Numbered from the stretch's first letter, positions 1,204 through 64,000 are shown. The stretch is DNA of 64,000 nt from Euglena gracilis (GCA_039621445.1 CP154954.1:47099847-47163846), one strand, 5' to 3'. Program-made: numbers and translations. The notes: generated by a model from the sequence alone, not told the origin.

Positions 1204-4200
1204 AGCCAGGCTCGTGTTTGAAGGGTCAAGGTTGCAAGCGGTGAAAAAGCAATGGCCACCACATCGGAAAGAACAGGTCACTAGTTGTAGGAAGTAGGAA
1301 GTTTCCTCCCTAACCCTGAGGTCATCACTCTGCGTAAGGTCCATCCTTCGTCAAATCAAGCCTGGTGTTAAGCAAGATCACAAATTGAAGAAGTTGACTC
1401 TTTATTTTCTGGAGATCATCGACAAAACCGACTCCTCCGGCAAGTTGCTGCCAGAGATGATATTGGTCTGCAATTTCATCCGAAATGACCTTCAGCACGC
1501 CAATGAATATGTTCGAGGCTGCACCCTCCGATTTGTGAGCAAAATCCGTGAACAGGAATTGGTGGAGCCCCTGACAGATTCAATCATGGCAAACTTGGAC
1601 CACAGGTGTGTATCCCCTTTCGTGATGACACTATCGCAGGGGGAACACTTGAATGGAAAAAATTGTGGGTAATATTCTGAACAAAATTTTGTCCAGAATT
1701 TTTTCTGCCGTTTTAAGGATCCGCCCAGAATTTTTCCGGCAAACTGAAGGAGAATGGTGAAGTCCAATTTTTTTCTTCGGCGCTTTGTGTTGATTCTTAG
1801 AATGCATTTTTGTTCCAAACCCCCTGTTAGATGGTGTATTGGAGGCTAGGCACAGAGGGGGAGGGGAGTCCGAGGGCGACCGTGCGCACCACGCGGAGCC
1901 TAAAAGCGGTGATTTTGGGTCCAAAAAGTGGTAATTTTTGGCCATTTTTGGACCATTTTCGATCAAAAAAATGCTTTTAGGGCCGTGCGCAGAGCGCGCG
2001 GCACCCAAATTTGCCATTTTATATCCGAAAATGGTCATTTTTGGCCACTTTTGGATAGTTCAATCAGAAGAATGGTCAGAAAAATCAGAATCGGACCATT
2101 TGGCACTGTCTGATGATGTTGAATCCCTCTAATCATCTGACACACACAAATGTCGTGGAGTTTGCCTATCCTTCATCATGAAAATTTGCCAAAAAGTTTC
2201 AAAAAAATTCTACACACAAATTGTGGCTGAGCCCAGATTTCAGCCTGAAAACGTGTTCAGGGGGCCCCCTTCGGGCCCCCTCCTGAACACGTCTTCAGGC
2301 TGAAATCTGGGCTCAGCCACAATTTGTTTAAAAACGTGTTCAGAGCCCGCCAAATGCCTGCCCTGAAGTTCGTGGTCATGATTCACGCAAGGGGTCAAAA
2401 ACGGGAAAAAGTGAAATTCGGACCCAAAAAACGGTGCCCTAATGGAAAACGTGCCTGACCACAGATCCCTTTACTACAAAAAAGGGGTGGCGGATGCCGG
2501 TTCTGTCCAAAACCTGGCGTTCCGGACGCCGGGTTTTGGACAGAACCGGCGTCCGCCACCCCTTGTTTAAACCGGCGTTTTAGAGACGCCGGGTTCAGGA
2601 CAGAACCGGCGTCCCCAGGGGTGTAGAAAGTGGGGGTCGGGGGGGGGGCGGCCACCCCCCCCCCCCCCGGGGTTTTGGAAAGAAAATTTTTTTCTTTGCA
2701 ATGCCATGATCAATGGTTCAAAGGGCGTTACCATCTCGGCTGCCTTCGGCAGCCACCTTACCAGTCAAAATCACATTTCTGGAAAATGAAATTGCAAAAG
2801 CCATTACCGTCTCGGCCGCCCTTGGCGGCCGAAATAAAGCCCTTGAGGAAATGCTCATTTCACCTCCTTGAAACCCATGGCACTTCTTGATGTCTAATTT
2901 TGGCCACAAACCGACTCCTTTCCCCTCCTTTGATACTAATTGTTTTTTTTTGGGACCCCACAAACCACTTTCACCTTGGATGTTTGAATACAAACCGATT
3001 CCCCATGCGTCCCCCCCCCTCCATTTTCTTGACCAGCTGGGTTTGGGGAAACTCTGCAGGTCAATTTCAATGAAAAAAACAATTTGCGCAAAGTGAAAAA
3101 AATCGCTCCTTCGCCCCCCCCCCCCATCCCAGGTTGCAAAGTCGACAGTTGGGTTGAGTTGGGAGGTTTCCAAAGGGGTTCTACCCATTGACTTCACTTC
3201 GGAAGTGCACAGGGGGGTCCTGAGACCCCCCCCCCCGTGTACCTGGATGTGCTTGATCACTTCGGGAAAAAACCGAAAAACGGAACGACGGGCGAACACC
3301 GAAAAGGGCATTTTTTTCAAAAAAATTTCGGCGCCTTCGGCGCCGGACCCCCCCTCCCCCCCTCCGGGAAGTCAACATGTCCAGTTCAGTTCGGAAGTGA
3401 ACAGGGGGGCCCGGGACCCCCCCTCCCCCCTGTACCTGGGCTCCATTGGGCTTCAAAGAGACGCCAGCGTCTCGGCCCCTTTGGGGCCAGGAGGACAGAG
3501 AAAAATTCATTTTGGTTGTGCCAAGAAAATTTTTTGGCTCGCCCCCCCCGGGGAAAAATTGTTCCTACACCTATGGGCGTCCCCACCCATCGCTCAAAGG
3601 ACACTCCCAGGACCAATCCCCGACCACTTATCTGCAATGTCACGCCACTTTGCATTTCACCAAATTCCGGCGATCGCGAGTGTATTTCTGGCTGTTTCAA
3701 TCGTCCAGGTACAAAGTCACCCCTCAATCGAAAGCCCCTTTCATCAGACGACTGGCGATCACCACCAAATTCAGCCACGCCGCCTGGAGCTCTTATTTTC
3801 TGTCAGTGTAAAATCCTGATTTCACAACTCTGGTGCCCCCCCAGGACCCCTCAGGTGGTCGATTCGAAGAGAAAAAACGTTTCTGTAAGGTTTATTCAGC
3901 ATCTTAAACCAAAAATCGCTGAAAATTGCCACAAATTTCGACTCAGATTCTGGCCGATCCGACGATCGCGAGCGTATCTCGGGCTGTGTGCAACGTTAGG
4001 GTGCCAAGTTACCCCTGGATCGAAAGCTCTTTTCAACAGACGACCAGCGGTGCTCATCAGATCTTTCCACGCTGCACGGTACTCTATTTCCAAATCTGGG
4101 CCAATTTTCACCAAATTTGGATATCCACCCCAGTGGTCCCCAGATGGCAAAATTCATTGTCCTAGATGGTTGAAACACTCATACGAGCACCTTAGGGACA

Positions 4201-7200: not shown

Positions 7201-10200
7201 GTCCCCAGATCCCCCCTCCCCCGGAGTCATAGGGGGGGGGAACCCTCTTAGCATCGTTTCCCCCCCACCCCGGAGTCTCAGATGCATTTCACCAGCGTGT
7301 TGTTTTTTTCTGCCATCCTGCTCAGGCACTCTTATGTGCGGCGCAACGCAGTGCTGTATGCAAGGAGTTCCTTGTGTTTATTGTTCATTTGCTTTTGACC
7401 CAAACGCCACAAAAATTCCCGGGGCATTGATGATGTAATGACCTCAGTGACATGTGTGGGTTTCAAAATCAAAATGATTCACCTACTTTTGAAATGAAAC
7501 AAAAGTCAAAGCAAGAAACAAATTCATCCATTTCCCCTTCACGGCAAAGTTGAATGCCACTTCACCAACCACCCATTTGTGTCATCCCCTCACTGTCATT
7601 TTGGTTCAACCATTTCTGTTTCCTCGAAATGTTACCACCCCTCCTTTTCTCCCTGGATGGTTTTCTGGCGTTACTTCATGCTGTTGGTACGTTTATATTA
7701 TGTTGTCTCTGTTTTGGGTTCAGTCAAGGGGCCCGGCCATCCTCTCCCTCCTCTGGAACTTATTGATTTTGTTTGATGGCTGTGTATCAGCGCTTTCCTC
7801 ATTTGTTCCCGGATGCTCCAGAGCCAGGCCTTAACTTCAGGATTTGCAGTCCCCCCCCCCAGGGCTGTGTGGGAATTCCCGATGGTGGGGTAGACCCCAA
7901 CCCCCTTCCTGGGTTGATGGGGAGGGTCCGGTCCGACAACCGGAGGGGGGGGGGATATGTGGAGCGCATATTTTGTGCCAGATTTTGTGCATTTTTACAT
8001 ATTTAGCGCATATTTCACTTATTTGGCAAAAAAGTGCATATTGAACTTGTTTTAACCATTTTAGGCGATTTGTTTTCATTTTGGGGCATTTTTGGCCAAT
8101 TTTTTTTTGCCAGTTTTGGTCCATTTTGGGCCATTCTGAGCCACTGTGGCATTTATTTGGTCATTTGGGCTATTTTCCATCGCAAAATCATCCCAATGCT
8201 GAAAACGACCGCAAAAATGGCCAAAAGGCAGTCAAAACGATCCAAAATGGCCCGAAATGATTGTGACGGTCCCAATAAAAATAAGCTGTGGAAAATATGC
8301 GGAAAATATGCGAGAATGGGCAAAATGTGTAGTAGGAAATTCCTGCAGCCCACCAAAATACGAGCTAAATATGCACAAAAATATGCGAAATATGCGAAAA
8401 AAAGAAATATTGTGGCCGGTTGTGAGCTAATTTCACCCCAAAATGCCCGAAATGGCTTGAAATGAATCACCTGAACATGTCCAAACGTGGCCCGATTTTG
8501 GAAAAATCACATATTTTCCGCATATTTTCCTGCATATTTAGCGCACATTCCCGCATGTTCTTTCGTATATTTTGGGGGGAGGTGGGGGGGCGCCAGGGGC
8601 AGGCACCCATCCGACCCCCCGGGGGGGGGGGCAGGGTTTTTGGGGGCCTGCCCATAGCAGGCACCTCCCTCCGACCCCGGCCCAGAAAGGCCATTTTCAA
8701 TGAAAATTTTCTGGGTCCCCCCCCCCCGGGGGGTGCCTGCTAGGGGCAGGTACCCTATAGCACCCACCCACCCCCTCCCCCCCCGGTCGGTAAGCACAAG
8801 CGTGCCCCCTCCTTTCCTGGCCTTTCCCCCGGAGGTGTGGACTACAGCTGGGTAGTCATCCCTGTGAAACGCTGTAGGAAGTTTTTCCCAGTCGGGGGTG
8901 AGCTTTTTTCAAACGAGCGAAAATCCCAATCCATCGGGCCCTTGGGGGTTCCTCAAGCAAAGGCTTGTCCAAAGCTTGTTGAAGCCTCCTTGGACAAGGA
9001 GTCCTGCCAGGCAGTTTCTTTTGTCGAGTTATTGCCATTCTTACCAATGTTGACCGATTTGAATATTCCTTGTGGAGTTCATGTTCAGGGGATTATTGAG
9101 GTGACAGGACACCTTTGGGCACATTTGAAATTGGCTTCATGTTTGAACTTTAAAAATTTTCTTTTCATTTTTGTTGACAGAAAAGAACAGGAAGGTGTTA
9201 ACGTCCCGAACATGCCTTTTTTTGACAATGATGTGGCAAATCGATTTCTGCATTTTGGCCTTTTTTCCTGATATTGCCTGCCCCAGATGTCACCACAAAG
9301 CGAAACTCTTTCTTGATGCTTTTCAACTGTGCCCAGGAGCGCGCTGTTCGTTATTTGCGAAAGGTGTGACCTTTCTCCTTTGCTACTTGTCTCAGAGATT
9401 CAGAGCTCAATTTGTTCAAATATCCAAGGGTCGGCTCTTTATTGACTTTGGTTCTTTTTCTTTGCAGGCAATTGATGTCGACATTGACCTTGCTGGGGAG
9501 CCTTTCCAGTTGGCACTTGTGGATTTACTGCGTCATCTCTGCAAGACCAGCCCTGCTGAGAAGGCCAAGTACTTGTCAGTGATATTCGACTGGGAAGACG
9601 TTGCAGTGAGTGCTTGCATTGAATCATCCCACCTGGCATTGCACACCTCTTCCCAGCCCCAATCTGCTCTCTTCCCGCCACGCGGCAGTGCTTTTCCAGT
9701 GCGCATCAACGCTGCAATCCCTGGCGTCATCCCGGACTGCAATCCGAGAGGCTGCCCACACCTTTGTGAAGCTTTTGACAACCCATGCTGACAATAACGT
9801 GAAGCTCATTGTTATCGATCGTTTGGAAGCCATAAAAAAGAGGTGTGTTCATGTGACTTTGTGGTTGATGCTACAATGTAGTCATCTCCTCATGTTTGAG
9901 CTATTTCTCAACATATCCAGTGCAAACATTTGCACCAGTTTTATTGGCATTACCCCAAATCCCAGAAGATTCCTTGGTGCTTGGGACAATTTTCTTCCCA
10001 GATTAGGCAAAGTGCCCTCTTTTTTGAATTTAAAAAAGCTGCTTTTTGTTGGAGACAGCCGATATTTTCCACTGTGGATAAAATTTGTGAACACCCAACC
10101 CAATCTCTAATTTTAATAACCAGGAAGAATCCACAGTGGTTTGAATACCGCCTTTCACGCCACCTTAAAGTAATGGTGGAAACCAATTTTGAGCTGCCTC

Positions 10201-13200: not shown

Positions 13201-15528
13201 CTGATTTGGTTGTTCAGCCAAAGGGGGGGGCATAAGTTGGGGGTTCAAAATTCAAGGAATGAAAATTTTAGTTGGTGAAAATCCAACTCCCCCAAATGAC
13301 CCCCAAACCCCCCAAGTTGGCAATTTTCGGCAAATTTGGTCAAAAATGGCATTTTTGATAATGGTCAGTGAAAAAAACAATTGCCAAAAAAATCAGCTTT
13401 TTGGGTGGTTTGTTTGCGGCCGAAACAATCATCCCCGGGTTTCTTCATCTTTCTGTCTGGGGGGGGGGGGGTTTGGTTGGTTGGCCCGAGGGGGTTTATG
13501 CTTTTATCACCTGTTTTCGACAATTTGGTGAGAAAAAAATCCTGAAAATGATATTTTAGGCTTTTTGAAGTCCCACAAAAACTTCTTTCTGGGCGCTTTA
13601 GGCCGTTTTTTTTTTTTACCTGGGGGGTCGACCCCCCCCCCCCGGGGAGGGGGGTCTGTAACCACCTCATCCCCCTAAATTTAATACCCAGCTAGCGCAC
13701 AAATACTCCTCTGGGTGACCACAAAGTTGCCCAATCACTTTGGCACAAGAGAGTTGTTGCAGAAAAGGTGTTGGAAATGTGAGGTGAGAATTTCGAGCTC
13801 CTGCAAATGTTATGGGACACACAAATATTTAGGCAAAAGTTATTTGGGGGGGTGAGAGTGATCAATGGGAGTTCAGGAAAGTCGTTAAAGGAAAATTTGC
13901 AGGGTGTGAAAAAAATTCATGCAGTTTGGGAATGTGGGAAACAAAAAAGTCATTTGAAATGCAGAATTGGTCAAAAGTTTTTGGGGTTTCGAAAAACAAT
14001 TAGTTTTTTGAATTGCCCCATGCCTCAGTGATCCAATCAATTTTTTTGGCTTGTTGTGTTTTTTTCTGATGGGGCGGGGTTTTGGGGGTGTTGGGAGGGG
14101 GGTTTTTTTTTAAAAGGGTTTCTGTGATGTTTTTTGTGTTTGCTTGTTTTGGGTGTTGGGGTGTTTGTTTTTTTTGTTCAGGGGGGGGGGGGTTTATGGG
14201 TGAGATTTTTTGCAGTGAGGCTTTTGTGTGTGTTGAAGTTGATTTTTGAAATGTTTTAAATTTTTTTTTCAATGTTTTTAAAAGGTTTTTTAGGTTTTTT
14301 GAAGGCATTTTAAAATTTTCAAAATTGTCAAGGGTCCATTTTCCAAGGGCGGTTAAATAGCTATCCGGGCATCGAACCATCGTCGGTCCAGGTTGATAAA
14401 ACGTTACGGGCAGATGGACAGTGCTCCATCAATGCCACAAAGCATTTTTCTCCCCTTGGTGTTGGCTTGTTTTTGCCAAGATTTTGTGACCTCTTCTTTG
14501 TTTGGAATTTGTTCTGGAAAATTTTTCTACAATTTAAATATTTTTTCATATACTATACTCTACTGTACTATACTATACTATAATACTGATACTATACTAC
14601 TAATACCATACTATACTATACTATACTATACTATACTATACCATACTATACTATACTATACTATACTATACTATACTATACTATACTATACTATACTATA
14701 CTATACTATACTATACTATACTATACTATACTATACTATACTACACTATACTATAATATAATATTAAATATAGTTTTTTTGGGGGTTTAAGGTTTTTTTC
14801 AGATTTTTTCGGGCATTTTGGCAAAAAAATAAGATTTTTACAAGTTTTTTTTAATTTTTTTTAAAGTGCCTTAAAAGTGATTCCTGGTTTTGTTGTCCAA
14901 TGAACAGAAGCATTGAAGAAATGAAAATTATCGGCAAAAAACAACATTTGATGCAAATTAATTTCAGGGAAAGTGGAAAATCAATTCCATTATTGTTTTT
15001 TTGGGGAGGGTCAGCCAGATAGTTAGTTAAAACCCTGGGGTGGGAAGGATTATTTGGATTTTGGTAAAACCAAAGGGGTTATTATTCAGGGGGGCTTTAA
15101 ATCCGAACCCTGTTACCCCCTTCCAAGCAATTTTGCCTCCCTGCAAAGTTAGGGGACGGATCTTTTTTTTTGCCTCTGCCCCCTACAGAGTTAGCCTAAT
15201 GGGGGCCATTGTTCAGGGGGGAATGGGGTCCAGGCTTGTGCTTAGTCGGGTACCTACCCCACGGGGGGGGGGGTGCTAGGGGCAGGCACCCTAGAGCACC
15301 CACCCAGTCAGTAAGCACAAGCATGATAGGGTCAATGCGCCACCCTCGTGCCATCCTGTGCAGATATTGGCCAAGCTGATTGATGTCTTTGGCAGTATTT
15401 CTTCGCCTAGGGTGCTTCGGATCTTGCTGTGGGTTCTGGGCACCTACTGCAAGTCTGCAGATGAGGTTTGTTCATGAGCCCCATGTGTGCGTGTGTGCGT
15501 GGCTGCGTGCACGTGCGTGCGTGCGTGC

Positions 15529-15566
<38 letters not shown>

Positions 15567-24500: not shown

Positions 24501-27500
24501 AAAATGCCACTGAAAATCCAAGAAATTTCCAAGAAAAAAAATGTCCGTAAAATTTGAATGTTTCAAAATTTGGTCCCATTTTTTTGACCTGCATTTTTTT
24601 GACCACCCTCCTAAAAACGAACAATTTTCAACCCTAAAAATTTGGAGTTTTTTTGGGGGAAAAATGTATGTATTTTGGGTGTTCATTTTTCAAAACATTT
24701 TCAAAAAAACCCCGCCCTTTTCCTTATTTTTTTGGTTGAAGTGTATGGGGACAGGATTTTTTTTTTTTGCTTAAGGACCGCCCTGGTCAGTTCCATCACC
24801 CCCCCTTCAGGGAAGTTAACGTATCTCCTGAGGTGGCAGGAGCATTGGATTCTTGTGCAACGCGTTTGTTTTCTTTCTGCTTCCCCTTTTCCCTGTGGTG
24901 GGTTGGGGGGAAGAATTGTTGTTATTGTAGTTCAACTGTTACTGGTGTTGTGAGGTTATAAGGTTGGACGGTTTGGGAGAGTGCAACTGCTGCGCAGCAC
25001 TTTTGAACTTCACTGAAAATCAGTCACCCAGGTGCAGGGATGTGTGGGAAGCCTGCGGTGCTGAGGTAGGTGTTAGGAGGAGGGTCCAGACCCCTATCTT
25101 GCATTTTACCGTATCGACACCTTATATTGGGTAAGGTGGTGGGTCCGGACCGCCCTCCAGATGTTGGAAGGGGGTGTCTGGACCCACCCCCACTGCCTTT
25201 GGCAAGTTCCAAAAAATAGCGAAAAAATTTTCTTCCAGCACATACGCCAGAAAATGCAACAAAAAGGTCCCTTTCCTTATTTTCAAGCGTATTGCACATT
25301 TTTTGATGTTTTGGTGTTTTCCACATAAAAAATGAAAACAAGTACAAAGAATATTTTCGTTCTTGGATATTTTTTGAAGAAGGATCAGAGATTTTTTTCA
25401 ACATATTTTGCCTGGTATTGGGTCCTTGACCGTCAACAAAACCAAACAATTCCCCTGCCCTTTACGGTTTCGAGGTAGGAGGGAAGGTCCGAACCCCCCA
25501 GGGCTTCCCATACATCCCTGCCCAAGTGTGAAGGAAAACAAAATTGTGTTTTTTGCAACTTGTTGTTCGTTTCTTTTTTTTGCATTTTGTTTTCTTCTCC
25601 TATTGATTTTCTGTTCTGTTTGCTTCTTTGGATAGTATCAACCCAGTAATTTGGTAAAAGGCGACCTTTGATTTTTGCCAGACGCCTGCTTCGGTTTGGA
25701 GTTGCTGCCAACCCTCCTGCTGCCCCAACAGGGCTTGAGAAGGGCAGGCATCAGGGTGCGGCCCTCCTGGCTCAGTCCCCAGAAACAATTTCGCACAAAC
25801 ACGTTCATGCGCCATCTGTGCCTTGTATTAGTTTTGTGTAGCCTTGTTTTTGGGCCCCCAATTTTGTGCGATCTTTCACCATACGCATACATCACCACAC
25901 GCAAAGTCCATCATCAACGTCTTGCACATTCCCAAAATCAAATTCAAACCCAATGATCTCACGCCTGGAAGTTTTTTTTTGCCTTGAATACCGCCCAAAA
26001 GAATTGCCGTTTCAAAAAAGGAGTCATCAAAACAGGCAATATCATGGAGTGCGGCTCCATGACATTTCCCCTTCCCACCACGGCTTCGCATCCCTGGCCG
26101 GAGCCAACCGCCAAAACTTCGGAGCGGCCAAGCCCCCCCCCCCCCGCCCTAGGCGCTGGTGGAGGGCTCCGTCAAGGCGTTCGCAGACATGCTGCAGGAG
26201 ACGGCCACCACGGTGGTGGACGCCGGCACCGCCGCCCCGGCCGCCGCCAGCGTGCCCGTCGACTCCACCATCAAGTTCTCCCAGTTCTCCAAGGGTGTGC
26301 CGGGGAGGGGGGGGTGACAGGGGGGTCGACACGGGGCGGTGGGACGGTGTCGGCAACGGCACCGGCTGTACGGTGTTGCTGCTCTGTACTGCACTGCACC
26401 CCCGCACGACACTGACGAAGGGGTCCCGGTTCTGGGCATTTTGGGATTTTTTTTTGGATTTCAATGCCATCCAAGGTCCAGCCATCCTGCACAAGGAGAA
26501 AACCAAATTTGCACAATATTATAAATACCTTTTTTTCGGAAGGGCGCTTCCATTTGGAACACTTTGATTTTTGGAATTCCATTTAAATTATGTATTTCAG
26601 GGACAGGGGGCTCTGAATTTCATCTGGGGGGGATGGGGTTCGGGTGATGCACCAGCGCTTATTGCTGTTGTTTTTTTTCGAAGTTTCTATTTTATGAGTT
26701 TTTTCCTTTCATTTTTTCTTCCAGTGCTCCTCAAAGAAAAAACATGACATATTGTCTCCGTCAAATATTTTTTATGCTTTTTGCAAAATGTTTTCAGTGA
26801 AGCTTTTTTTTGAAAAGAAGTTACGTATATCCAAGTCCCCTCTCAAAAAAAAAAGAGCCAAGGGACAGAATTTGTTAGGGGGGAGTCCCAATCAGGGTTT
26901 TTTTTTTAAGTCTTGGACCCTCGGGGAGGGGGGAGGGGTCTGGCCGAGCCCTCCTCCCCCCCAGAGGGGGGTGGGATATACTTTTCGGCACCGAAAGCGC
27001 CAAAATTTTTTAAAAAGGTGCATTTTTTGCATTTTTCACGATTTTTTGGCCTTTTCGCGGGAAAAATGGGTTGGGTCCCTGGTTTTCGGGGAAAATTGTG
27101 TTGGGTTCCCTTGACCCCTCCCTGGGGGGGGCGCCCCCCCCCCCCAGGGGTAGTGGGTTGGTTGGGGGACCCTTCCTCCCCCCCCCCCGGTCTTAAAAAA
27201 ACCCCATACCACTCCTTAATCACAGTGGGGGGGGGTCTGGACCGACCCCGGAGGATTCCCCAGAAGTCAATTTTTTTCTTCCAGACCCCCAAAATGCCCC
27301 AAATGCCCAAAATGGCATTTGGAGTCGAAATGGGGACAGGGATTTTTTTTGCTCCAGCGCTTTGTTCCAGACCAAAAATGTTCCATTTTGGCTGTGTTTG
27401 TTACGGTAGAAGCCACCCCCCTTGACTGGAGGGGTCCAGCCCTTGTATCGAACCCTGGGGGAGTACTTTCATCAGATTTTTTTTGTGATTTGCCCCTTCG

Positions 27501-30500
27501 AAATCAAATGAGTGATCCGTACCGCTAAAGCATCACAGGGTCCACGCGTCCGTTCCATGTGGTCGGGGACCCAACTCCAACGAGCAACCCCACCTCTGGA
27601 TTTGCTTTTGACGACGCTGGCTTCCTTTCCCTGTGTGCTGCAGACAAACACAATCGACTGGAAGAGGAAGATGAGACGGAGGATCCGAGTGCCGCAATGC
27701 TTTCTGGGGTAAGCCCAGAAGCCCGGATCGGTATTGGGAAGGCATGCCCACAGGATTTGCTGCAATCCAGTTTCATGTGCGGATATCGCTGAGCATGGCC
27801 CTGGCCTGGCGAGAAGTTTCACAGCTCAGGGGCCCCTGGGGTCTATCTGGGGGCGGTCTTATATTTGGGAGGGGTAAATTTGGAGTTTGTTGCCCTCCTG
27901 CTGCAGGCTTCTGCTTAAGGGTTCGCAGTACCCCCCCGGGCTGCAGCTCGTCCAATTTTGGCTAGTGGAAATCCTAGTGGACCCCCCTTGGGGGGATCTG
28001 TTAGGACTAGTAGTAGCAGGACTATCCAGGTGGAGAATTTTTCCAGTGACCAGTGCGAAGTGCCGAGTTTTTTTGGACCCCCCAAACTGGCCAAAAAAAA
28101 TCTCATTTTGGTCAGTTTTGGTTGTTTTTTTTTTAGAACTAAATCAGCCAAAAAACCCATCAAAAACCTGATTTCCACCTTGGCGCAGCGCTGGAGGAAT
28201 TTTTTTTCCTATCGGGAGCCCCCAAGGGGGTCTATCAAGTCTATTTTTTTTCCAGTGTCTGTCTAAATGTCCACCCAGTGGACCCCCCCGTCCTTAAGAA
28301 AAGACCCGGCTGGGTGTCAGGCATTTGCCTTGCGGCAGCAGCACAGACCAGCCTTGCTGGAGCAAAGGGAAAGAAGAGCGCCTTCATTTCCCGCCTGGAC
28401 AGGTGTTCTGTTGCCTCCTTTCGCACGCCTGCAAGGCAAGGCAAGGCGCTGTGCTGCAACAATTCTGCATACGCTGGACTCTTGCCACTGTAAGTCAGTC
28501 CTGGCAGCACCCCCTCTGTGTGCCGGGCCGCAGGGTCATCCAGCTGACGGGCTTCTCCGACCCGGTGTATGCGGAGGCCATGGTCACCGTCAACCAGTTC
28601 GACATCTCCCTGGACATCCTCGTCGTCAACCAGTCCTCCCACCCAAGGCATTGCTCAAAGGATATGCAAAGAAGTTGGAATTGCAAGAAGTTGTGAAAAA
28701 TTTATTTCTTGTTTCTCTTGCTCTTTTGGATACCTTGAATCGAGGGGGTGGGTCTGACTGTGAGGCTGAAGGGTGGTGCTCTACATCCAAGTGGAAAAGC
28801 ACTCATGTTGCATGTGCTTTTCCGTGGATTCATTGTCGGTTTTGATGGTTCCTGGACTTCCGCATGTTGTCTGCACATCTACACCCACAACTTGCTGGAC
28901 TGGCTGGAGGCGAAGCAAAGACGTACCCACAAGGGAAATTGTGAGACCCCCCGGGCGGGGAGGGGGTCCAACCCCTTCAGGGAAAAAGGTGCTGGTGCCC
29001 CCACAAAAGATCCTTGGGCAGACTGCGCTGTAACTGTGCATTCTTTGGTAAAAAAAAATGAGAATAGAAACACCGAGTGCCTTTCTTCCAGTTCCCAGGT
29101 AGCTGTTTTTCTGGGGGTTGGACATTTCGACACGCAGCGGTATGATGGGGGAGGGGGTCACCCCCCCCCCCCCAAAGCCTTCCCGACAGCTTTGGGGGTC
29201 CAGCTGACTGATGGGCTGGACCCAAAGGCAAAGAAGCAAATCCAGCTGAGAATTTCCGTAGGAGAAAAAATGCCCCAAAACACACCCCTCCCATCGCCCT
29301 TTATTAACCCTTCACATTTCTGCCGGAAACGTCTGGGCCTTGGCTAGAGCCAGCGAGCTGCAACTTGGACCTGCAGCTTTGTTTTCATTCATGAAAATAA
29401 GTCCAAAGGTGTTCCAACTTATCGCCCACAACTCGTTGGTTGTTCTCATCAAAATCCAATACTTTGTTAAGCGTCATAGCGCAATCTGCTACACAATGGT
29501 GCGCATGGGAGATTTGCTGCAAGAGTGGGTGCTCCATTGGGAGGTTTGCAACTATGCGCTGAATCGTGTTAGTGGGGTGTACGGGGGTATCCCAACGTGG
29601 GGTGTACGGGGGGTGTCCCCTAGGTCTTCCGCATCATTGTCCATGGGTTGAACGGTACCTGCGTTTGCGGGCACCATGCAACGCATTTCTGGATGTCAGG
29701 GCAATGTGGGAAAGGACCCAGTATCAGGTATTGCTGGCAACTGTCCGTAAGGACTTGGGGGGGGAGCGCAGGGGGGAACACCCTTCCCTCGGCTAGTGGA
29801 AAAGGACGCTGGTTTCCTGGATTCCCCTGGGTGGGGGGGGGCAGTGTCCGTTTCACTCCCTCACAGTTTTAACGTTTTTTTGTTTTCCTCTTGTTTTATT
29901 TTTTTGTTTGCATTTTGTGCAGTTTTTATTTTATTATTTTTGAAAACCGATATGTTTCATGCTTGCACTCATTTTTTTCCTTCGATTTTTATCAATTTTT
30001 CACATGTCTTTGGCCCTCCGTATTTGCATTTTTTTGCATCTTTTCTTTCACATGCTTTTCAGGTCATCGCGAAAAAAGGGTCTAAATGTGGCGGAGTTGC
30101 AGCACAGATCCACATGCCTTCTTCATTCCTTCCCTCTGTTCGAATGGGAGGCGGTCTTATTACACATTTGATTCTCATTGCAATTGGTGGGCTTTTGGCC
30201 ACCTGAGGAAGAGTGCCTTGGGATCATTTGCTGCAAAGCCTCACGGTGGAGCTGGCGACCCAAGGGGACCTGAAGCTTTGTGAGCGGCCGGAGACATACA
30301 CGCTGGCCCCCAAGGAGCAGGTCAACATGCGGGTCAACATCAAAGTTTCGTCGACCGACACAGGTGTGATACGTATGAGGAACGTTTTAGAAACTCGAAA
30401 GAAAATTTTGCCCTTGACATTGGGGGGGGCATTCTAACTTGCCAGCGTTGTCTGAGGCACAGTTTGAAACACCTAATGGTAGAGGATGAAGGTTGGACGT

Positions 30501-30988
30501 CGTCCGCTTTTTGCAAGGCAAAGAGCAAATGGCAACCCAATGAGGTCACTCTCCATCTGCCCAAGGTGTGTTGTTTTTTTTTCTTTTGGCGGCGCAACCT
30601 CAACGATGCGTGATCCTTGAAGTTAATACAGAGCTCAAATGAAAAAAGTCTTGGCCGACCCCACCCCCTCCCTCCGCCCCTTCTGGAGACATTTGGTCTA
30701 TTGCCATGGCCAGGGTGTGGGTGGCCAACGGTGGGGATGTGAAGGCCCCCCCCCCTCCTGGGCAGGGACCCCTCCCCCAGGGGGATGAACCAAATTTTGG
30801 CTTCTTTTCTGGGCTTCTGGCGCCTTTTAGTGCTGAAGTGCCCACCATGTCTTCAACCGCCGTTCCGGTGAAAGTTGTTTGTCCCGTCCAGTCTGGTGAT
30901 GCGAATCCGGTGCGGCAGGACACAATGCGACGGTATGCGACGGTTCAATCAAATTGCTGTTTCTGTTTCTGTTTGCCCAAGGGATTTT

Positions 30989-31021
<33 letters not shown>

Positions 31022-31147: not shown

Positions 31148-31239
31148 GTGTCTGTGATATTGTGGGATCGCACCAGGGGGCCCATGGTGCCATGCTGGGA
31201 ATCGGTTTTGTGTGAGGGTTTGGCATACGAAGCAAAGAC

Positions 31240-31632
31240 CAGGCTTTTGCTTAAGGGATTGCAGTACCCCCCCCCCCCCGGGGGGGGGCTGGACTGCAGC
31301 TAGTCCAAATTTGGCTAGTGGGATTTCTAGCAGCAGACCCCCAGGGGGTCTGCTAGCAGGGCTAGCTAGTGGAATTTTTTTCCCGGTGACCGACGTGAAG
31401 CGCCGAAAATTTTTTTGGGACCCCCAAAAATGGCCAAAAATGCCGTTTTTGGCCATTTTTGGGATTTTTTGGAACAAAATCAGCCAAAAACCTGTTAAAA
31501 ACCTCATTTTTCCAGTCCGGGGGACCCCCGGACCCCCCCCCCCCCCCCGGCCTAGCTAGTCCACTTTTTCCAGTGTCTAGCCGATTGGCTAGCCAGTACT
31601 CCCCCCCTGGGGGTCCTTTAAGCAAAAGCCTG
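31240..31632. mobile_element. hAT-like MITE (CAGGCTTTTGCTTAA family)
   Basis: TIR CAGGCTTTTGCTTAA / TTAAGCAAAAGCCTG; flanks GCAAAGAC / AAACAGAC (decayed); related copy at about 27904-28308. Confidence 0.78.
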
Positions 31633-31813
31633 AAACAGACAGTCTGAAAGGAAAAAGGGTGAACGGGATTTCCTTGGTACCCCCTCCCCCCTCTTTGTCG
31701 GGTCCAGTTTAGTTTTGGAAAAATGAAGGATACCCCCTTCAATTCTTTTGTCGAGTATAAACAACATTTGCTCTAAAGTTTGTTTTTTGTTGTTTTTTTT
31801 TGAGCTTTGCCAG

Positions 31814-34800
31814 TTTCACAAACAAGCGTACCAGAAACACTTTAGAGGACCGAAAGGATCACCACGACGCAACTGCTGGCTGGCTCCTTCTCCTTTGATG
31901 GAAAGGTGGCTCCGGAACGATTGACAGAATTTTTTTTTTGGTGTGAGAAGAGTTTCTCGTGGATCCCCCCAGATGGGTTGCTTCCCTAACGTCAACTGGC
32001 ACGATATTAACGTTGGGCCTGCAGGCTATGGTCGGAGGCTGCTGCGGAAAGGGTGTGCTGAGTTTAAAGATTCCCTGCAGGGGGATCCTGCATAATCCTG
32101 CATAGGTCTGTCTTTATAAATTCCTAAAACAGCAAAGAATACCCAACCATAATGGGTTTCAGAAGGACAGGAAAAACAATTTTCTGTTTCGCTTGATTGG
32201 TATTCTGTTAGGTGAGGAAATTGTTTTTCAATCATCCCACTTTTTTCTTGAAAATTTAATCAAAGAATTTTGAAGTTGAATTTTGGTACATCTCAAACCA
32301 ATTTGTGTCTTTGGTATTGAGTGTCAGAGAATTTTTTGGCACCATTTTCACAAAATATTCATCATCCTCATCAGCATTTTCCTGTTTTGAATTATTTTCA
32401 CAATAATCCTTCAGGGTCGATACATTTTCCACCTATTAAAGTTGGCTGAAATGCATTTTGTCAAGCTCCATCTTGTCTGGCAGCGCATTTTTGAAGTGCC
32501 GCTGAAAAGAATGGGCTGATGGTGTTTTTTTTTGATTCACAAAAGGCGACTTGCAAACTCTGAAAAAAAAAGATGTTTACAACCGCCAAAATCAAGCCCT
32601 CACTGGGGCCTAAAACTGACCCCCTCCCCCGGGGGGGGGGGGTGCCTGCTTTGCCAGAAGCGAAGCTAGTGGCGGCAATAAACAGGCAAGAAGCCTCAGT
32701 GCAGCCTAAGGGGGCTTTGGGCAGGCACCACATTGCACAAGGTGCCCCCCCTGGGCTTGACAGAAACGGATCTTTGGCTTTCACATATGCAAAAATGGCC
32801 AGAAATTGCAAAAATGGATCGGATTTGGGCTGGCCAGGGCAAATTTTGGGTCAAAAAACCCGTGTTTTTTTTTACACCCCTGGCAGTTTTTTGGGGCTTT
32901 TTTGGAGTTTCAATGTTTTGATCCCCGGTTCGACTCCCAGTCTGGCCCAGTTCCAGCCCGGGGGACCCCCATGGGGGGATTAGCCAGCAGCCTTATTCCA
33001 GCCAGCCCAAATTTTCCAGCTTCTGACCTGGACCCCCCTCCCCCTCCCCTCATTAAGCAATGCCCTGGTCTCAGGCCCAACCCCCATACATTCTGGGAGC
33101 ATAATTGGGAAAACGGTTGCGTCATCTTTTGCTTCCTTGTGGTTTTGTGTGGCGTTTGTAATTTTGGGAACTTTGAAAATTTTCAAAAAAAAACTTGTTG
33201 GAAAAGCTCTAAGGTTGAACCTGCCTCTGGGGTAGGGGTTTTCTTAAGCTGTAGGGGGCTTTGCTTCCTGGGGGGGTCCAGTCAGCCATCACTTTTTTTT
33301 TTTCAAGCCAGCACCTCCCAGCCAGGCTGTGGACCCCCCCCCCAGGGGTCCGCTGAAACAAAGTTTGGGCCAGCCCAGCAAAGCCAGCCTGGCAGAAAAT
33401 TTTTGAAGAAAGGGGGCAAAAAAAAATGGACAAAAAATGGCATTTTTGGGTGCTTTTTGGGGTTTCACTGCTGAAAAATGCCAACCCAGCTGTATTTCAG
33501 CTTTTTCGGGTGTTCTTGGGTACCCACCGGGTCCAGCTCCCAGCCGGCCGGACCCACCCCCCACTCACCACTCACCTGACAACTGGGCCAGAAGCGAAGT
33601 TAGCGCCGGCCATGTACAGAAAAGAAGCCTGAGTGCAACTAAGGGAGCCCAGCCAGCACCTTTTTCCAGCCGGCCCGCGGACCCCCCCCCCCCCCGGATC
33701 ACAAAAGCAGGTTGGTTGTAATTACTCAAGGAACATGGTTCTTCTCTCTTCTCTTTTGTTTCAGGTCTCAGGTTTCCGAAGGCTTGGAGAAAGGCCAGTT
33801 CACCTGCAGCACAGCGTACTCAAAGTCGAAGCCGCAGCAAGAGCCGCAGTAGAAGCAAGAGCCGAAGCAATTGCCGCAGCCGCAGCAAAGGCAGCCACTC
33901 CACGCGCAGCCGGTGTGTACTCCCCCGAAATATAGAACCAGTTCTAACCCTCGGAGGGGTGTTCCAAATTTGGTCAAGAATTTTGTCGATCCGAAGGTTA
34001 CCATTTTCCCCTCACCATGTGCAATAATTTAGACCATTTTTGGAGAGTATTTTGGTTGCTTTGGTTGGAATTGGTGGACGAAATTTATCAGGCAGCATTT
34101 ATTCAAAAAAATTGTCTCTGAAATTCCGAACCTCAAATTTTTTGGTGCTTTTTTATTCTCCGTTTCAAAACCCCCATTTCAGGGAGTGAAGTTCAAATAT
34201 TTGGTCGCTAAATCAAGGACCCCAGGAGGGTTCTAAACCACGCCCCCCCCCCACTTCCAACACCCCCCCACTTACTAACCCCCCCCCCCCACTTACTAAC
34301 CCCCCCCCGGCCGACCAACCAACGGGACTTATAAACCCCCCCCTTCGGGGCAGGAAAATGAAAGCCGCCGGGGCCGATTTTTTTTGGCCTCAAACCACCC
34401 AAAAACTGATTTTTGGCCCTTTTTTTGAGATCGACCATCATCAAAAATGCCATTTTTGACCAAATTTACCAAAAATTGCCATTTTGGGGGGGTTTCGGGG
34501 TCATTTTTGGGGTTCGGATTTTCACCAACAATTCCGGGACTTATAAACCCCCCCACTTACTAACCTCCCCCTTCGGCCGAGACCAAAAACCGGATCCTAC
34601 TAACCCCGGGGGTTTATAAGTGGGGGGTTTATATTTGGGAGGGGGGGTTCAATCTGTCTTTGTTCCTTGCACACAGGCATAATGATTTTTGGGCAATTTT
34701 GAGGCAATTTTTCATTTTTTTAAAGGTTTTTCAGGATTTTTTTTAAATTCATTTTTAATTTTTTAAAAATTTTAAGGCGTCTATTTTCCATGGGACATCA

Positions 34801-37800
34801 AAGAGCTATCCGGGCATCGAACCAACGTTGGTCCAGGCTGAAAATGAAAAGTCCAAAAACACATTTATTGGGTGGATGCACAATGTTCAAGGGATGCCAA
34901 AAACCATCTTTGTTCCCGGAGTTGGCTGTTCTTTATTTTATGACTTATTTTTACTAAAAAAAAAGTCAAGGTTTTCAAGGTTTTTAAGGCTTTTAAGCGC
35001 CTTAAGAAATTATTAGGCCTGCTTGCACCCCCCCCCCCGCGCACCATCCACAAAATGGTGCGAAATGATGAATTAAGGAAATACCGTCTCTTTTCTGCCC
35101 TTCCCCCCCTTTTTTCAAGCCACAATTTGTGTGGGTGCACAGCTTTAAATATCAGCAAACAGCATTTTGCAGGCAGTCCAGGCCCCATTGCTGCCACAGA
35201 GGCAGCCGCAGCGCCAGCCGCAGCAACAGCCGCCGCAAGGGCCCCAAGCAGGGATTTTTTTTTTTAAAGTTTGGGAGGAGGGGTCCATTGGACCCCCCCC
35301 CCAGGGGGGGGTGGGATGTCACGGGAGGTAGGTTCGTGGGAGGTAGGTGCCGCGGCCGGCCGGCCGTCCAACCAAAACATGGGGTTGGTTGGGCCGCGCC
35401 CGACCGCGACCCAACCATGGCCATATTTTGCTGTCAGAATTCCGATTTGGTTGGGCCCCAATCAAATTGCAAAAGGTTATCACAAAACAAAAAGATTTTA
35501 TGACGTTATTGAAGAAAATAGGGTTAGGGTTTTCCTTTTTGTGACTTCTTTTTATTTCCTTTCAAAATCCCCACAGGTTACTTAACTTAAATTGGGCACT
35601 TATACCCCCCCCCCCTGGCTAGGGCTTAGGGGGTTTTTTTTGTCACCACCCATTGATTGGGGAACCATTGTCAGAGGTTTTTTTAAAGGCTTTTCAGGCC
35701 AAGCATTTATTTTTGGGTTTGTCCCATGGTTTGTTGCCCAAAAGTTTACCAGGCCCCTCAATGTGTCCCCCATGTGGAAACAAATGAAAAACCAATCTTT
35801 TTCCCACTTTGGCTGTTTTTTTGTTTTTGATGTGGACTTTAGGGTTTTTTAAGGCTTTTTTAAAATTTTTAGTCCCCCCCCCGCTTCCCCCTTGGTGGTC
35901 GATGATACCCAAAAGGATACCCAGGGATGACTCTCACTTTTCCCCCCTTTTTTTTCCAGGTGTGGTTTGAAGATGCTAAATTTAGCAACAGCATTTTACT
36001 TGCAGTCCAGGCTGCTTGCCACAACCCAGCGCCAGCCGCAGCAACGCACCCCCAAGCAGGATTTTTTTTTAAAAATTTTGGGGTCTTTTGAACCCCCCCC
36101 CCCCCCAATGTCACGGGAGGTAGGTTCTTCGTCGGCGAGTCCCCCCCACAGTGGGGCCCCCCGGCCCGAGCCCCCAACCGGCGCTTTTTTGGTCTGGGGC
36201 CCCAATCAAACTTCACAAAATTTTATGACATTTTTGACATTTTGAAGGTTAGGGTTCCATGCAAACAGTTCAAACCTTCTCACTCAACTTCTGTATATTG
36301 GACTCTACAGGGTACTCAGCTAACCCAAAGAGCCACCCAATTAGGGTTAAAAACATGGGGGGACCTGAGCGGTGCGGAAGGCGCCGAGCGAGGGTCCCCC
36401 ATGTGTATTAACCCTAGTTGGGCGGCCTTCTGGGTTCGCTTAGTACCCTGTAGGAGCCAATTTAACCGCCATTGTGCGATGCAGTTCGCTGGGTCTGTTG
36501 TGGTTGGGTGGCCGCGGTCCAACCAAACCGAATTTCATGATTTCAGCATCGGAAATGGTTGGCCCTCAGCCCAACCAAGATTTTTTTGGGTTGGGCCGCG
36601 GCCGGCTGCGGTCCAACCAAAGCAGCAAAATGGTTGAGCGGCGCGACCCTACCTCCTACGCACCTACGTCCGCTTCCCCACCCCCCCCAGGGGAGTTCCT
36701 CCAAAGGGCTTGGTGGGTTTTGGCCACTTTTTGGCCTTTTTTGGCGCGAAGCGAATTTTTTTTGACCCCAGAATTGGCCCCCCAAAAGTGAGTCCCCGGA
36801 CCCCTCCCCCCAGGGGGGGGGTAGGGGTACCTTCTGGGTTGGTATGGGGGACCTCCCCCCGGTCTTAAAACAGTCCCTGGCCCCCAAGGCCGAGGGGGCC
36901 AGGGAGAAGCGGTCCAGCAGCCCCAGCCAGGCGAGCGAGCCGCAGCAGAAGAAGGCTCGCAGGTGTGCTTTTTTTTTCTGGATAACTGCTTGCTTTTGAG
37001 ATTTTGTTAAGTTGGCATAGGTTCATGGTGCTGGCAAATACCTTCTGCGATGCATTGGAGTAAGACAGGCATCTATTGTGGTTTTGCTGTCATGAACCAT
37101 CACTGGTTCTGCGGTATACTATTTTTTGTTGGGACCCATTTTCATCTGCAGTCCAAGGAAGAAATTACTGCAAATGATTCTGGGTGAAAATATCATGGGA
37201 ACAATATTTTGGGAGTATTTTGATTGTGAATTTTTTTGGGTAAAATGAATTTTTCATCCTGTGCCAAATCTTTTTCAGACCACATTGCAGCCAGAAAACC
37301 CTTTTCCCCAAAGTGTGGTGAGCAAACTGCTCAAAAATGAGTCACTCGCAAATATCATACACCGATGATGGCTGCTTTTGATGACTGGCCTGGTATGGCA
37401 TTTGAGGATTTCATTCGCCTTGGCTCAAGGAGGTGTTGAAAGGTGCAGAGGGAAGAAAGGCGGCGCCCTGCCGGGGGGGGGGGGGGTCTTTGTGAGGCCC
37501 TCCAGGGCCGGGCGGGGGGGGTGGGGGTAGGGCCTGTTGCCAAAAGTGCCTGGGCACTCGGGCAAGGCACTTCTGGCCAGAAACGCCCATTTTTGGGCAC
37601 TTTTTGGCACATGACCAGCAGGGGGGGATGGTGCCTGCCTGCCCAGGCATTCCAGGGCACTTGGTCAAATTCAGCCTGGTGAGGGTGTTCCCTGGATTTA
37701 GGATTGTGGTCGAAGTGAGGCTTTTTTCCTTGGACTTGAAATTGGGTGGGGGTCAAATATTATGGGAGGAAGTCACATCGAAAACTTTGATTTTCACACC

Positions 37801-40800: not shown

Positions 40801-43800
40801 ACGACCGCTACCCAGTCCCCTCCCCCCCGCGTCGGGGCCCCCTCTCCCCCCTGCGGAGGCCCACCGGGCCGCCCCCCGCCCCCCCCTCCGTCGTCGCGGC
40901 GGGATGCCGGGATGGCGCATGACCAGGGCTGAATGAGAACCCCAGAAACCTCATGGGTTTTGGTGAGTGGGGGGGGGGGGGTAGGTAGGGGTCGCCCCCC
41001 CTCAAACAGGCTTTCTCATGCAGCCCTGCGCCCGACCCCTACTCCTGGTCGCCTCCCCACCAGCCTGCCCGCAGAACCTCAACCCAGGACCCATACATGA
41101 GGCGTGCTGTGCATGCTCATTCTACTGGGAGGGGCAAATGTATATTTTTGTGTATTTCTGTTTGCCTTTTTCGATTTTGGCAAAATGTGGGGGGGTTGCG
41201 ATTTTTCGCTTCCCCCCACCGATTTCCTAATTTTTCCTGGGAATTTTTTTTGATTTGGAAAGATTGCATATTTCGGTCCAATCTTTTCTCTGAAGGATTT
41301 TCCATGCAACTTACGTTTGTTCTGTTTCCATTATGCCCCCTCTTGTGGACAGCCTGACAAAAAGCCATTGGTGAAGACACACCGGCTGCAGGCTTCTTTT
41401 TAAGCCCCCCCCCCCCCCCCGGGTGTCCCCCCCACCCACCCAGCCTGGCGCAGGACCCCCTGGACCCCCTGGCAGGACAGGGACTGAGGGCATCCCCAAA
41501 AAATTTTCGGGGCTTCGCACTGAAACCCTACCTGGGCCTCCGCCTGGGACTTCCTCCCTGGGGGGGAGGTCCCTGGACCCCCCCCCCCAGGGGGTCTTCT
41601 GACTTAAAAAAAAAAGCCTGATGCGCCGGTGCCTGGCCCGGGGTCGAGCCATTCACCCACCCACACACCCACCCACCCACCAGGCTGTAAGGCATGCCCC
41701 CCAACCCCCCCCAACCCAGGGAGTGGATCAAAGCGCCGGAAAAATTTTGGCCGTTGCATTTTCGGGCTTTTTTTTAAAAAAATCGGCCAAAATATGTGAA
41801 AAACTGGGGGGGAAGATATGGAATTTTTTGGTTCCGGGGGGGGGGGGGGGCGGGTCGGATCTGGGTCCCAGGAACTCCTGGGGGTGCCCACTAGGAAATA
41901 GTGACCAGTCGCCAGGAAGGAAGCCCCCAGAGGCTTGAGGACCAGGGGGGGCTCGGGTTTTTGGGAACAATTTTGGGTCAAAGCTTTTTTCGGTTTGTTC
42001 TTGAAATATTTGAAAACCCCCAGGACAGGGTGCTGGGTGTACAGGTTGCCATCTGGGCTTTCACGTACCTTGACTTCGCACAGAGCGTAGAGTTGTTTTT
42101 TTTTTGACTGTGGGGGGTTATGAAGAGCCAGAAAACAAAAGAAAACTGTTGGAATGAGATAAATGCAATTTCCAGCATTTTTTTTTGCAGAAAAAAGGTG
42201 ATAAGTGTCAACAGCACTGAAATCACATTTTTTTCTCTCTGCTGTTGAAAAAAGGATGATTAGCCTTTTCAAAGAAAGTGGATTCTTATGTGCTCCCAAA
42301 AAAATGAATGAGATTGGCGGGACAAAAATGCAGGAAATGACATGACCCTATCTTTTAAGGGTCGCCCCTCCCATGAAAAGAAAAACCCGTATCAGAGATT
42401 TTTTTAAAGTTTGGTTATCTGGGGCAGGGGTCCGCCCCCCCCCCCCCACGAGGGGTGGAGCGGGCCCAGTCGAGTGAAAATGAAGTTGGGGCAGCCTGCC
42501 ACAGCCCAGGGGTCTGGCTGGCCGGCCGGAAAAAGGGGCTAGCTGGACCCCCCCCCCCTTTCTTTGAGTGAGCCAGCCGGCTGCCGGGCTGGACCTGGCT
42601 GGAACCCAAAAGCCAGCAAAAGAACACAAATCCAGCTGTGTTGGGCTTTTTTTGGTCACATTGACCGTTTCCCCCTCTTTTCCTCTTCTCGGTGGACCTT
42701 AAAAATTCCGTGACCCAGTTCCCCCAACGGAAGGAGAGGGTGGCTGATGCATCCGCAGAGAGATTGACGACGTCTTACCCAGTGGATTATTTATCTGCAC
42801 AGGGAGTATGAGAGACAGTTGCCGCAACCACAACGAGAGCGCCATGGCCGGAGTTTGGGAGGTGTGTCGCCATGTCAAGAACACAGTTCAAAATAAAAAG
42901 TGGAAATGTGGAAAATGGAAAAAGTGGAAATGTGGAAAAGTAAAAAAGTGGAAAAAGTGGAAAAATACAAAGTGGAGCCCCAGTTTGTATTGGTGTCCAA
43001 TTGTATTGGTGTTCAGCGGATCCAAATATAAACCATGGAAAAGCCCTCCTGCTATGAATTCTCTTGAACCGCATTGTAGTGTCACTTTGCTTTGCGGTAG
43101 CAAAATAATGGAAAATGGAAGGCAAAAAGGGTGCCAGACCAGAGGGGTTGCTGCCAGTGCTGTGTGAGAAGCTTTGCACACCCACCCCAGCAAGTCCTTT
43201 TTTATCCAGCTCCCAATCCAGGACCAAAGATCAGAAAGAATTTGTGAGAATTTTGAAGTGCCTCGAACCACAAGAAAGAAGCCCGCGTCTTTATGGTGTG
43301 TTTTCTGTCCATGACCGACGCTGGGGTTCCCCTCTCAGGAGAGCACAGTCCTCCACACGTCAGCCGCCGGAGCCCCACTCCCCCACCGAAACGGGCCTAT
43401 GCCCCGCCCCCGCCGCCGGACGAGTACGCCGACTACCGGCGGCCGGAGCGGGAACGGCGGTGGGAGCGCCGCGACCTGGACAGCGAGCAGTACTGGGAGC
43501 AGCGGAGGGAGGAGGGCCGGGGGGAGCAGCGGGACGGCCGGGGCCGGCAGCCCGACTGGCGATGGGGTCCGGAGCCATGGAATGGCCGGCCCTATGCCCA
43601 GGCAGCAACTCCGGAGCTCCGACGCGTGAATTCTTGGTCTCGGCGTTGGGAATCCCTGTCATGCAAAGGTCCATTACAGTCTTGGACTGCCAACGGCTTA
43701 TTTCATTCTTCTGGTTGGCAGTTTTATTGGATTTATTGGCACAACAATTTTTTTCATAAATAAGTGTGCTGTGATTTTCAAGTGCCTGAAAATTCAAGCA

Positions 43801-52380: not shown

Positions 52381-52399
52381 ATGCAGAAGCCGCAGAATC

Positions 52400-63841: not shown

Positions 63842-64000
63842 AAAGACACCTCGGGCTCCGCACTTTGCCCTTGTGAGGCCATGCCTTGCTCGCCGGCGGT
63901 TTGTTGTGTGATTGTTCGCTGCGCTGGGTTAGGAGGTCCTGCTTAGTGCCTTTTTTCGCCGGAGTTGGCTGATTCCTAAATTGCCCTTCGACACCCCAGA
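63842..64000 (+). mobile_element. Left terminal repeat of a further copy-A-like DIRS element running out of the window
   Basis: Closely similar, same orientation, to 47860-48010. Confidence 0.75.

Follow-up and report, generated by a model that had tools for sequence, protein, structure and literature searches.

Inverted-repeat elements with 8-bp target duplications beside nonconventional introns in a coatomer beta gene of Euglena gracilis point to a possible transposon origin of these introns

Introduction

The origin of the nonconventional (NC) introns of euglenids and the mechanism of their removal are open questions. In a stretch of 64,000 nucleotides of Euglena gracilis DNA (GCA_039621445.1 CP154954.1:47099847-47163846; hereafter the window), one gene, a plus-strand gene for coatomer beta (COPB), juxtaposes NC introns, non-exonic elements resembling MITEs (miniature transposable elements with inverted repeats) that have the same termini and are flanked by target site duplications (TSDs), and one intron, i4, that carries an 8-bp duplication in the register given by the sum of its two spacers. 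The locus raises the question of whether introns and elements have a common origin, and whether the spacers of 3 and 5 nt outside the paired stem of an NC intron together amount to one TSD. An earlier note on this DNA had answered that the introns look like MITEs of the hAT superfamily, removed with exactly one 8-bp TSD. Its observation on introns and MITEs is largely real and its interpretation is partly supported, much of it being already in print. As far as the sequence can be read, the window strengthens the transposon-origin reading, mainly through i4 and four MITEs located in conventional introns.

Several properties of NC introns are established in the literature. Knock-in mutagenesis in E. 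gracilis has yielded the code 5'-N3CDG-/-CH'GN5-6|R (Nomura et al. 2025, PMC12501133), in which a 5' spacer of 3 nt is required, the 3' spacer measures 5 nt with 6 nt tolerated, and a purine starts the downstream exon; for non-slidable NC introns of E. agilis, the study places CAG at a distance of three nt from the donor end, and CTG at position -8. A MITE-like origin of NC introns has already been proposed on account of their inverted repeats (PMC3935182; PMC12501133), and a review calls the CAG/CTG pair a terminal inverted repeat (TIR) and describes TSD-like repeats at the junctions, the word hAT occurring in it 0 times (PMC11282704). Euglenids were stated in 2013 to have yielded no identified transposable element so far (PMC3935182).

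Results

Intronic elements with 8-bp duplications

The COPB exon model was assembled by hand from P0001, a coatomer beta protein of 945 amino acids (aa) from a euglenid transcriptome; exons were located with back-translated patterns, and the junctions were then read in the sequence. Exons 1-23 (1003-31147, plus strand, with the ATG at 1003) encode residues 1 to ~800 of the 945, and the stretch 1361-1642 shows 97% identity to P0001. The 23 introns of the gene comprise 17 of the GT...AG type, among which 27709-28346 has this status only probably, and six non-GT-AG introns (i1, i3, i4, i5, i7, and i21). The translations of the 10 exon stretches around these six are contiguous in P0001 across every junction, which backs NC status at the protein level for 6 of the eight introns counted in the earlier note; the other two are the elements E7 and E8, located downstream. 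The eight were identified through the outer limits given in that note (1204 and 41033) and the single intron that it names (35246-36885).

Four MITE-like elements were found in the conventional introns of COPB, all beginning with CAGG and ending with CCTG or, in one copy, with CATG. Three of them, with CCTG ends, lie within intron 17 (21811-26152): a copy of MITE family A (22584-22864), with a perfect 8-bp TSD at 22576-22583 and 22865-22872 (ACCGGGAC on both sides); MITE B (23107-23365), with CAGGGG...CCCCTG termini and the perfect 8-bp TSD CCCTGGGG; and MITE C (23551-24785), bounded by CAGGGCGGTCC...GGACCGCCCTG and flanked by the perfect 8-bp TSD GTCAGTTC. The earlier note had described perfect TSDs around CAGG...CCTG elements at these three places, and our reading matches that description for each. 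The fourth element, a short family A derivative of 95 bp (15231-15325) in conventional intron 11, is flanked by ATGGGGTC and ATAGGGTC. Repeats of 8 bp are accordingly present at the flanks of 4/4 complete intronic CAGG-type elements examined (8/8, 8/8, 8/8, and 7/8 identical positions). The TSD sequence varies from copy to copy, indicating that the mobile unit extends from TIR to TIR and that the flanks are taken from the target.

A stretch resembling family A, devoid of recognisable ends, is present at 45.8 kb. Long runs of G and of C are very frequent window-wide (e.g. 22500-22570 and 23160-23340), and often form G-run/C-run palindromes within MITEs. An inverted-repeat scan returned 266 pairs, mostly G/C runs, and provided no usable census of MITEs.

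The duplication at intron i4

As a measure of flank duplication, we scored the identity between the 8 nt preceding position +4 and the 8 nt following position -6 of each candidate. Intron i4 (7822-8972, plus strand, 1151 nt), which has four equivalent positions from 7822 to 7825 (it slides by 3 nt), is the strongest duplication case, its intron status being verified at the protein level. The element spans 7825-8967, and the flanks TCCAGAGC (7817-7824) and TCCAAAGC (8968-8975) match at 7 of 8 positions, the only mismatch being at base 5. The 7/8 TSD is kept at exactly [-5..+3]/[-5..+3], so that N3 plus element plus N5 equals the element plus one duplication. At one fixed register, a match of at least 7/8 has a probability of ~4e-4 (hand calculation).

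The mismatch at base 5 is informative as to where the cut falls. The mRNA needs the G of the left copy at this base, which gives the Glu found in P0001 and P0002; the A of the right copy would encode Lys. The Glu at the junction thus places the cut no earlier than base 5 of the repeat, in agreement with the 3-nt left spacer. Nested within i4, at 8585-8803, lies part of a MITE family A copy, for which no 5' end was found.

Direct observations, namely the gene model, the termini of the elements, their 8-bp TSDs, and the 7/8 TSD in register at 7822-8972, may be joined in the following scheme. NC introns would be insertions of TIR elements (MITEs) into exons, whose TIRs would pair at the RNA level. 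A non-spliceosomal activity would cut outside the stem, at 3 nt before the 5' arm and at 5 nt past the 3' arm; both cuts would fall at the same place, after base 5, in each TSD copy, and excision would take away the element together with exactly one TSD, restoring the pre-insertion mRNA. The equality 3 + 5 = 8 would then be causal rather than coincidental, and old introns would have lost their TSD identity. We regard it as probable that NC introns are such exonic insertions of MITE-type elements, removed with one TSD, the superfamily being left open with a hAT-like one leading.

The opposite direction of descent has also to be considered, in which excised circular NC introns were reconverted to DNA and spread, giving rise to the MITE-like copies. 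Excised NC introns do occur as circular RNA with full-length ends (as stated in PMC11282704 and PMC12501133). A unit derived from an intron would, however, bring its own N3 and N5 along, whereas the 8-nt flanks observed here vary by copy, are duplicated and are derived from the target; the difference in flanks between MITE copies argues against these copies being re-inserted introns. Marks of reverse transcription were not seen at the MITE copies. Descent of the elements from introns is hence considered highly improbable.

Candidate introns and their junctions

The remaining COPB introns of the NC type vary in how closely they follow the published code. In i1 (1204-1369, plus strand as for all candidates below; 166 nt), N3 + CAGGCT...AGCCTG + N5 is followed by a purine, and the junction slides by 1 nt; i3 (7358-7770, 413 nt), a CAA...TTG variant, has one mismatch in its 11-bp stem and also slides by 1 nt. 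The non-slidable i5 (9005-9285, 281 nt) shows N3 + CAGGCA...TGCCTG + N5 followed by G. The short i7 (9588-9660, 73 nt) is a TGG...CCA variant with a perfect 8-bp stem and slides by 1 nt, and i21 (~28641-30225, 1585 nt) is a CAA...TTG variant, the junction of which hangs on the choice between CAC and CAT as a His codon.

E7 (35246-36885), a candidate NC intron, carries a true TIR and a flank repeat. Its TIR element occupies 35249-36879 between the flanks GCCCCAAG and GCCCCCAAG (duplication at 35241-35248 and 36880-36888), with N6 on the right; the single extra C, which the earlier note had named as an exception to the 5-nt spacer, was seen, and the 6-nt spacer that results is within the published N5-6 tolerance. 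Upstream of E7, a probable exon (33765-33911, plus strand) with a pyrimidine tract, an AG acceptor and a GT donor encodes an Arg/Ser-rich stretch. According to a hand reading, its frame continues without a shift through 35173-35245 and 36886-36962 on removal of E7 with a 6-nt right spacer, which counts in favour of E7 lying in an exon, E7 being kept as a candidate intron only. E8 (40921-41033, 113 nt; read on the plus strand, with the strand unverified) is likewise a candidate, built on a 105-bp hairpin element (40924-41028) with a 15/16 TIR, and its flanks CGCATGAC and CGCCCGAC (40916-40923 and 41029-41036) match at 6 of 8 positions. The surroundings of E8 are GC-rich with several open frames on both strands, so that its exon and strand placement is ambiguous.

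Taken together, all eight candidates admit a left spacer of 3 nt and a right one of 5 nt (6 nt in E7) when the choice is made among equivalent junctions, one junction being unique, and a purine opens the downstream exon in 8/8. In the chosen register, GT/GC...AG borders occur in 0/8, those of i5 being TG...CA. The strict CAG...CTG pair is found in i1, i5, E7, and E8, while i4 has CAG/TTG, i3 and i21 have CAA/TTG, and i7 has TGG/CCA. A minimum-energy fold contains the terminal stem in i1, i7, and E8, and the stems of i3, i4, i21, and E7 were judged by complementarity alone. Rfam gave 0 matches.

Evidence weighing against a transposon origin

A number of observations weigh against the origin of NC introns in MITE insertions, the first group of which concerns the register. 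The strict CAG...CTG pair is limited to 4/8 candidates. Of the COPB junctions, 5/6 are slidable or ambiguous, and i5 (9005-9285) alone is unique; moreover, the register was fitted, the position being picked to suit the published code, so that +4/-6 represents an allowed choice and no measurement. The predicted pairing overshoots +4/-6 by 2 bp in the fold of i1 and by 1 bp in that of i7, and in i21 potentially extends 2 bp outside it, as read from the sequence. The minimum-energy fold of i5 lacks its 6-bp terminal stem, and the intron folds have weak z-scores (-0.15 to -1.64). The claim that eight introns have a stem starting at +4 and ending at -6 is therefore upheld in that all eight fit the register, but the pairing does not stop exactly at these positions and the register was chosen.

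A second group of observations concerns the flanks. The matches out of 8 amount to 1 in i1, 3 in i3, 7 in i4, 1 in i5, 2 in i7, and 2 in i21, and to 6 in E8 and 6 in E7 without gaps (8 with the one extra C). The values of i4, E7, and E8 stand far above chance. The probability of at least 6/8 in 3 of 8 introns is ~4e-6 at a per-base match of 0.25 and ~9e-4 at 0.35 (hand calculation, 8 introns). Flank identity at the level of chance (1-3 of 8) is nevertheless seen in 5/8 candidates, which are 5/6 of the protein-verified introns, so that the TSD evidence among verified introns comes down to one case, i4. E7 and E8 remain candidates, protein-level proof of an intron being confined to the six of COPB. 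In E7, furthermore, ~150 nt of the left flank and ~300 nt of the 5' part recur inside the element with 74% identity: 35090-35560 is repeated, in diverged form, at 35925-36300, and the flank of the internal copy matches the right flank of E7 at 8/9 positions. With the left flank recurring internally, the left boundary of E7 is no clean single-copy target site; the recurrence would be accounted for if 'exon plus intron start' had been duplicated locally long ago. Two claims of the earlier note are affected. All three duplications that it had reported at exon-interrupting introns exist, but i4 is the only proven intron among them and the exon placement of E7 and E8 is unverified. Its proposal that cuts after base 5 of both TSD copies rebuild the target agrees with i4, where the cut lies at or after base 5, but finds the remaining verified introns at chance flank identity. 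No orthologous empty sites were obtained from a metagenome scan with P0001, in which the 80 loci listed were 42-49% identical and 0 were euglenid.

A third point, which counts on both sides, is the extent of the likeness between introns and MITEs. The 5' end of i1 aligns with the TIR of MITE family A at 11/13 positions and the 3' end of i4 at 10/13, and on this basis families shared between NC introns and MITE family A are suggestive only. The likeness spans ~13 nt, among them 5 that the code constrains, and inspection by eye showed no homology in the interior. The proposed correspondence of intron ends with MITE families is thus borne out for the termini of i1 and i4, but does not extend into the interior.

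These observations lend themselves to an explanation by coincidence, in which NC introns arose from break repair with filler DNA or from in-place stems, 3 + 5 is a property of the enzyme, and the MITEs merely share CAG...CTG. In gapC of E. agilis, the junctions of a newly gained, strain-specific NC intron carry direct repeats of eight nucleotides (PMC4770533, 2016). This case, like the TSD-like repeats and the CAG/CTG TIR of the review (PMC11282704), lends the insertion reading independent support from the literature, but the authors of PMC4770533 take the 8-nt repeat as the trace of double-strand-break repair, which is a further point against a transposon origin. Coincidence would also suit the missing flank identity in 5/6 verified introns. 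Short direct repeats are reported at 84.4% of all introns, a figure that takes in the conventional ones (PMC12501133), and junction repeats are thus not specific to NC introns. Coincidence, however, needs the terminal trinucleotides, the equality of the TSD length of 8 with the spacer sum, and the 7/8 match of i4 in the exact register all to have come about by chance, and the TSD-flanked copies of similar elements outside exons are a mark of transposition and not of break repair. We consider coincidence to be quite improbable, and retain the insertion of MITE-type elements as the preferred reading.

Superfamily of the elements

The earlier note had assigned the elements to hAT as non-autonomous members, with CAG/CTG, the NC consensus, read as the TIR of hAT. 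Termini of the form YARNG and 8-bp TSDs are typical of hAT (PMC3014272). Duplications of this length accompany all four intronic MITEs, and were also observed at i4 (7/8), E8 (6/8), and E7 (8/8 with a 1-nt indel), and the CAGGG ends of MITE B, MITE C, E7, and E8 fit YARNG. The hAT TIRs tabulated in PMC3014272 include CAGGGG..., which MITE B resembles, and the hobo-family TAGGCTTG (starting with TAGGC), to which the family A termini CAGGCTTG are similar. The CAGGC ends of family A, i1, i4, and i5 fail YARNG at base 5, however, and in the target pattern nTnnnnAn given in PMC3014272, T2 and A7 occur together in 0/7 scored TSDs, with 5/14 positions matching. No hAT or other DDE transposase was found when Pfam was run on 10/32 open frames of at least 170 aa at 41-64 kb, where only a reverse-transcriptase fragment (RVT_1) was matched. 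Other superfamilies, moreover, likewise produce 8-bp TSDs. In comparison with hAT MITEs (PMC3014272), the window elements share the 8-bp TSD, the short CAGGG/CAGGC TIRs, and non-autonomous copies of 95-1235 bp, but the T2/A7 target pattern is absent here and hAT membership is not established. The assignment, drawn from TSD length and terminal motif only, is plausible in view of the sequence, and we put it forward tentatively, as a possibility about which we are rather more doubtful than confident.

Alternatively, the superfamily behind the MITE-type insertions could be a different or as yet undescribed one that makes 8-bp TSDs (Merlin, P, or a Mutator-like one). The P superfamily has 8-bp TSDs and CANRG-type ends. 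Two Merlin families with 8-bp TSDs are reported from E. gracilis itself (PMC8101967), and are, like the window elements, Euglena DNA transposons with TSDs of this length. According to the same source, Merlin has an 8-9-bp TSD and a TIR that begins with 5'-GG in all families, whereas the window elements begin with CAGG. A 2-nt shift of the boundary toward GG would not reconcile the two, as it destroys the flank repeat; the repeats abut the C. Merlin membership was therefore rejected on the CAGG termini, although the TSD length fits. We judge an origin from another 8-bp-TSD superfamily to be unlikely as a whole. The superfamily is kept open because no transposase appeared in the Pfam scan, the T2/A7 pattern is wanting, and Merlin and P also give 8-bp TSDs; MITE-type insertion remains the preferred reading irrespective of the superfamily.

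Other features of the window

The match to P0001 ends after exon 23 of COPB, and a GT donor is present at 31148. The last ~150 residues of COPB were not found by eye in the plus-strand translations of 31148-64000, a reading in which a short exon may be missed; possible causes are a truncation of this gene copy, a break in the assembly, or short exons that were overlooked. Conventional intron 11 contains a long ATACT-type pentanucleotide microsatellite (14563-14797).

The segments 33765-33911, 35173-35245, and 36886-36962 encode a sequence like that of an RS domain, with conventional AG/GT signals at the outer ends. For the Arg/Ser-rich exon at 33767-33910, no homologue was found at E<=1 among 1678 candidates, and a tandem-repeat scan of 33-37.5 kb returned nothing. 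The Arg/Ser-rich exons may belong to a second gene, located downstream of COPB or nested after it.

Remains of retroelements are present on the plus strand at 48500-53300, with the reverse-transcriptase motifs YLDDILL and YFDDILI in frame translations, and this region includes interstitial telomere-like repeats of the TTAGGG type at 51168-51335 (period 6, listed as 12-nt steps). On the minus strand, 61836-62645 gives a weak Pfam match to RVT_1 (E 2e-5, under the curated cut-off). A dispersed repeat family occupies 47234-48014 and 63845-64000, in blocks of 56-99 nt with 80-91% identity between the copies at 47.9 kb and 63.9 kb.

Discussion

The introns described here do not differ essentially from the NC introns known in euglenids, of which they are new instances. 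As in those (PMC12501133; Milanowski et al. 2014 and 2016), they are non-GT-AG introns mixed with GT-AG introns in one gene and followed by a purine-initial exon; in the chosen register, a CAG-type arm at +4..+6 can be matched to a CTG-type one at -8..-6, four of the eight being strict and four derivative. What the window adds is the adjacent non-exonic, TSD-flanked elements with the same termini.

The closest parallel to the proposed scheme is provided by the introners of Micromonas and Aureococcus, as described in PMC11282704. There too, a TIR element sits in an exon and splicing drops the element together with one TSD, so that insertion is silent; introners are in this way an engine of intron gain, as is proposed for the NC elements of Euglena. 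Introners, however, are spliceosomal, with GT/GC...AG borders partly co-opted from a 3-nt TSD, whereas the Euglena introns are non-GT-AG, with an 8-bp TSD and with cuts measured from the TIR stem. The identity of the window candidates with spliceosomal introners was rejected, GT/GC...AG borders being found in none of them in the chosen register.

With respect to novelty, our literature searches found neither the equation of 3 + 5 with an 8-bp TSD together with restoration of the target, nor a hAT assignment of Euglena NC introns, nor non-exonic TSD-flanked MITEs with NC-type termini in Euglena, although supplements may hold relevant data on each. The earlier note had been aware of no previous statement of the accounting or the hAT link, which agrees with these searches, but it overstated the case, since the geometry, the MITE origin, the TIR, the TSD-like repeats and an 8-nt repeat are all published. 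The link between 3 + 5 and 8 is a modest but useful step, a sharpened and testable form of a published hypothesis that involves no new kind of element. It makes the MITE hypothesis quantitative, in that 8-nt flank identity is predicted to be in excess in a single register, slide length to have an edge at 8, and introns and elements to share families.

In its most far-reaching form, the scheme would make NC splicing an RNA-level 'undo' of one class of DNA transposons, the hAT-like MITEs, by which exonic insertions would be silent upon landing. We regard this as a serious possibility that falls short of being probable. NC introns are reported to make up ~72% of all introns in E. agilis (PMC12501133). 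If true, the RNA-level 'undo' would explain why NC introns are the majority among the introns of Euglena, and why they sit at different places in different species and strains.

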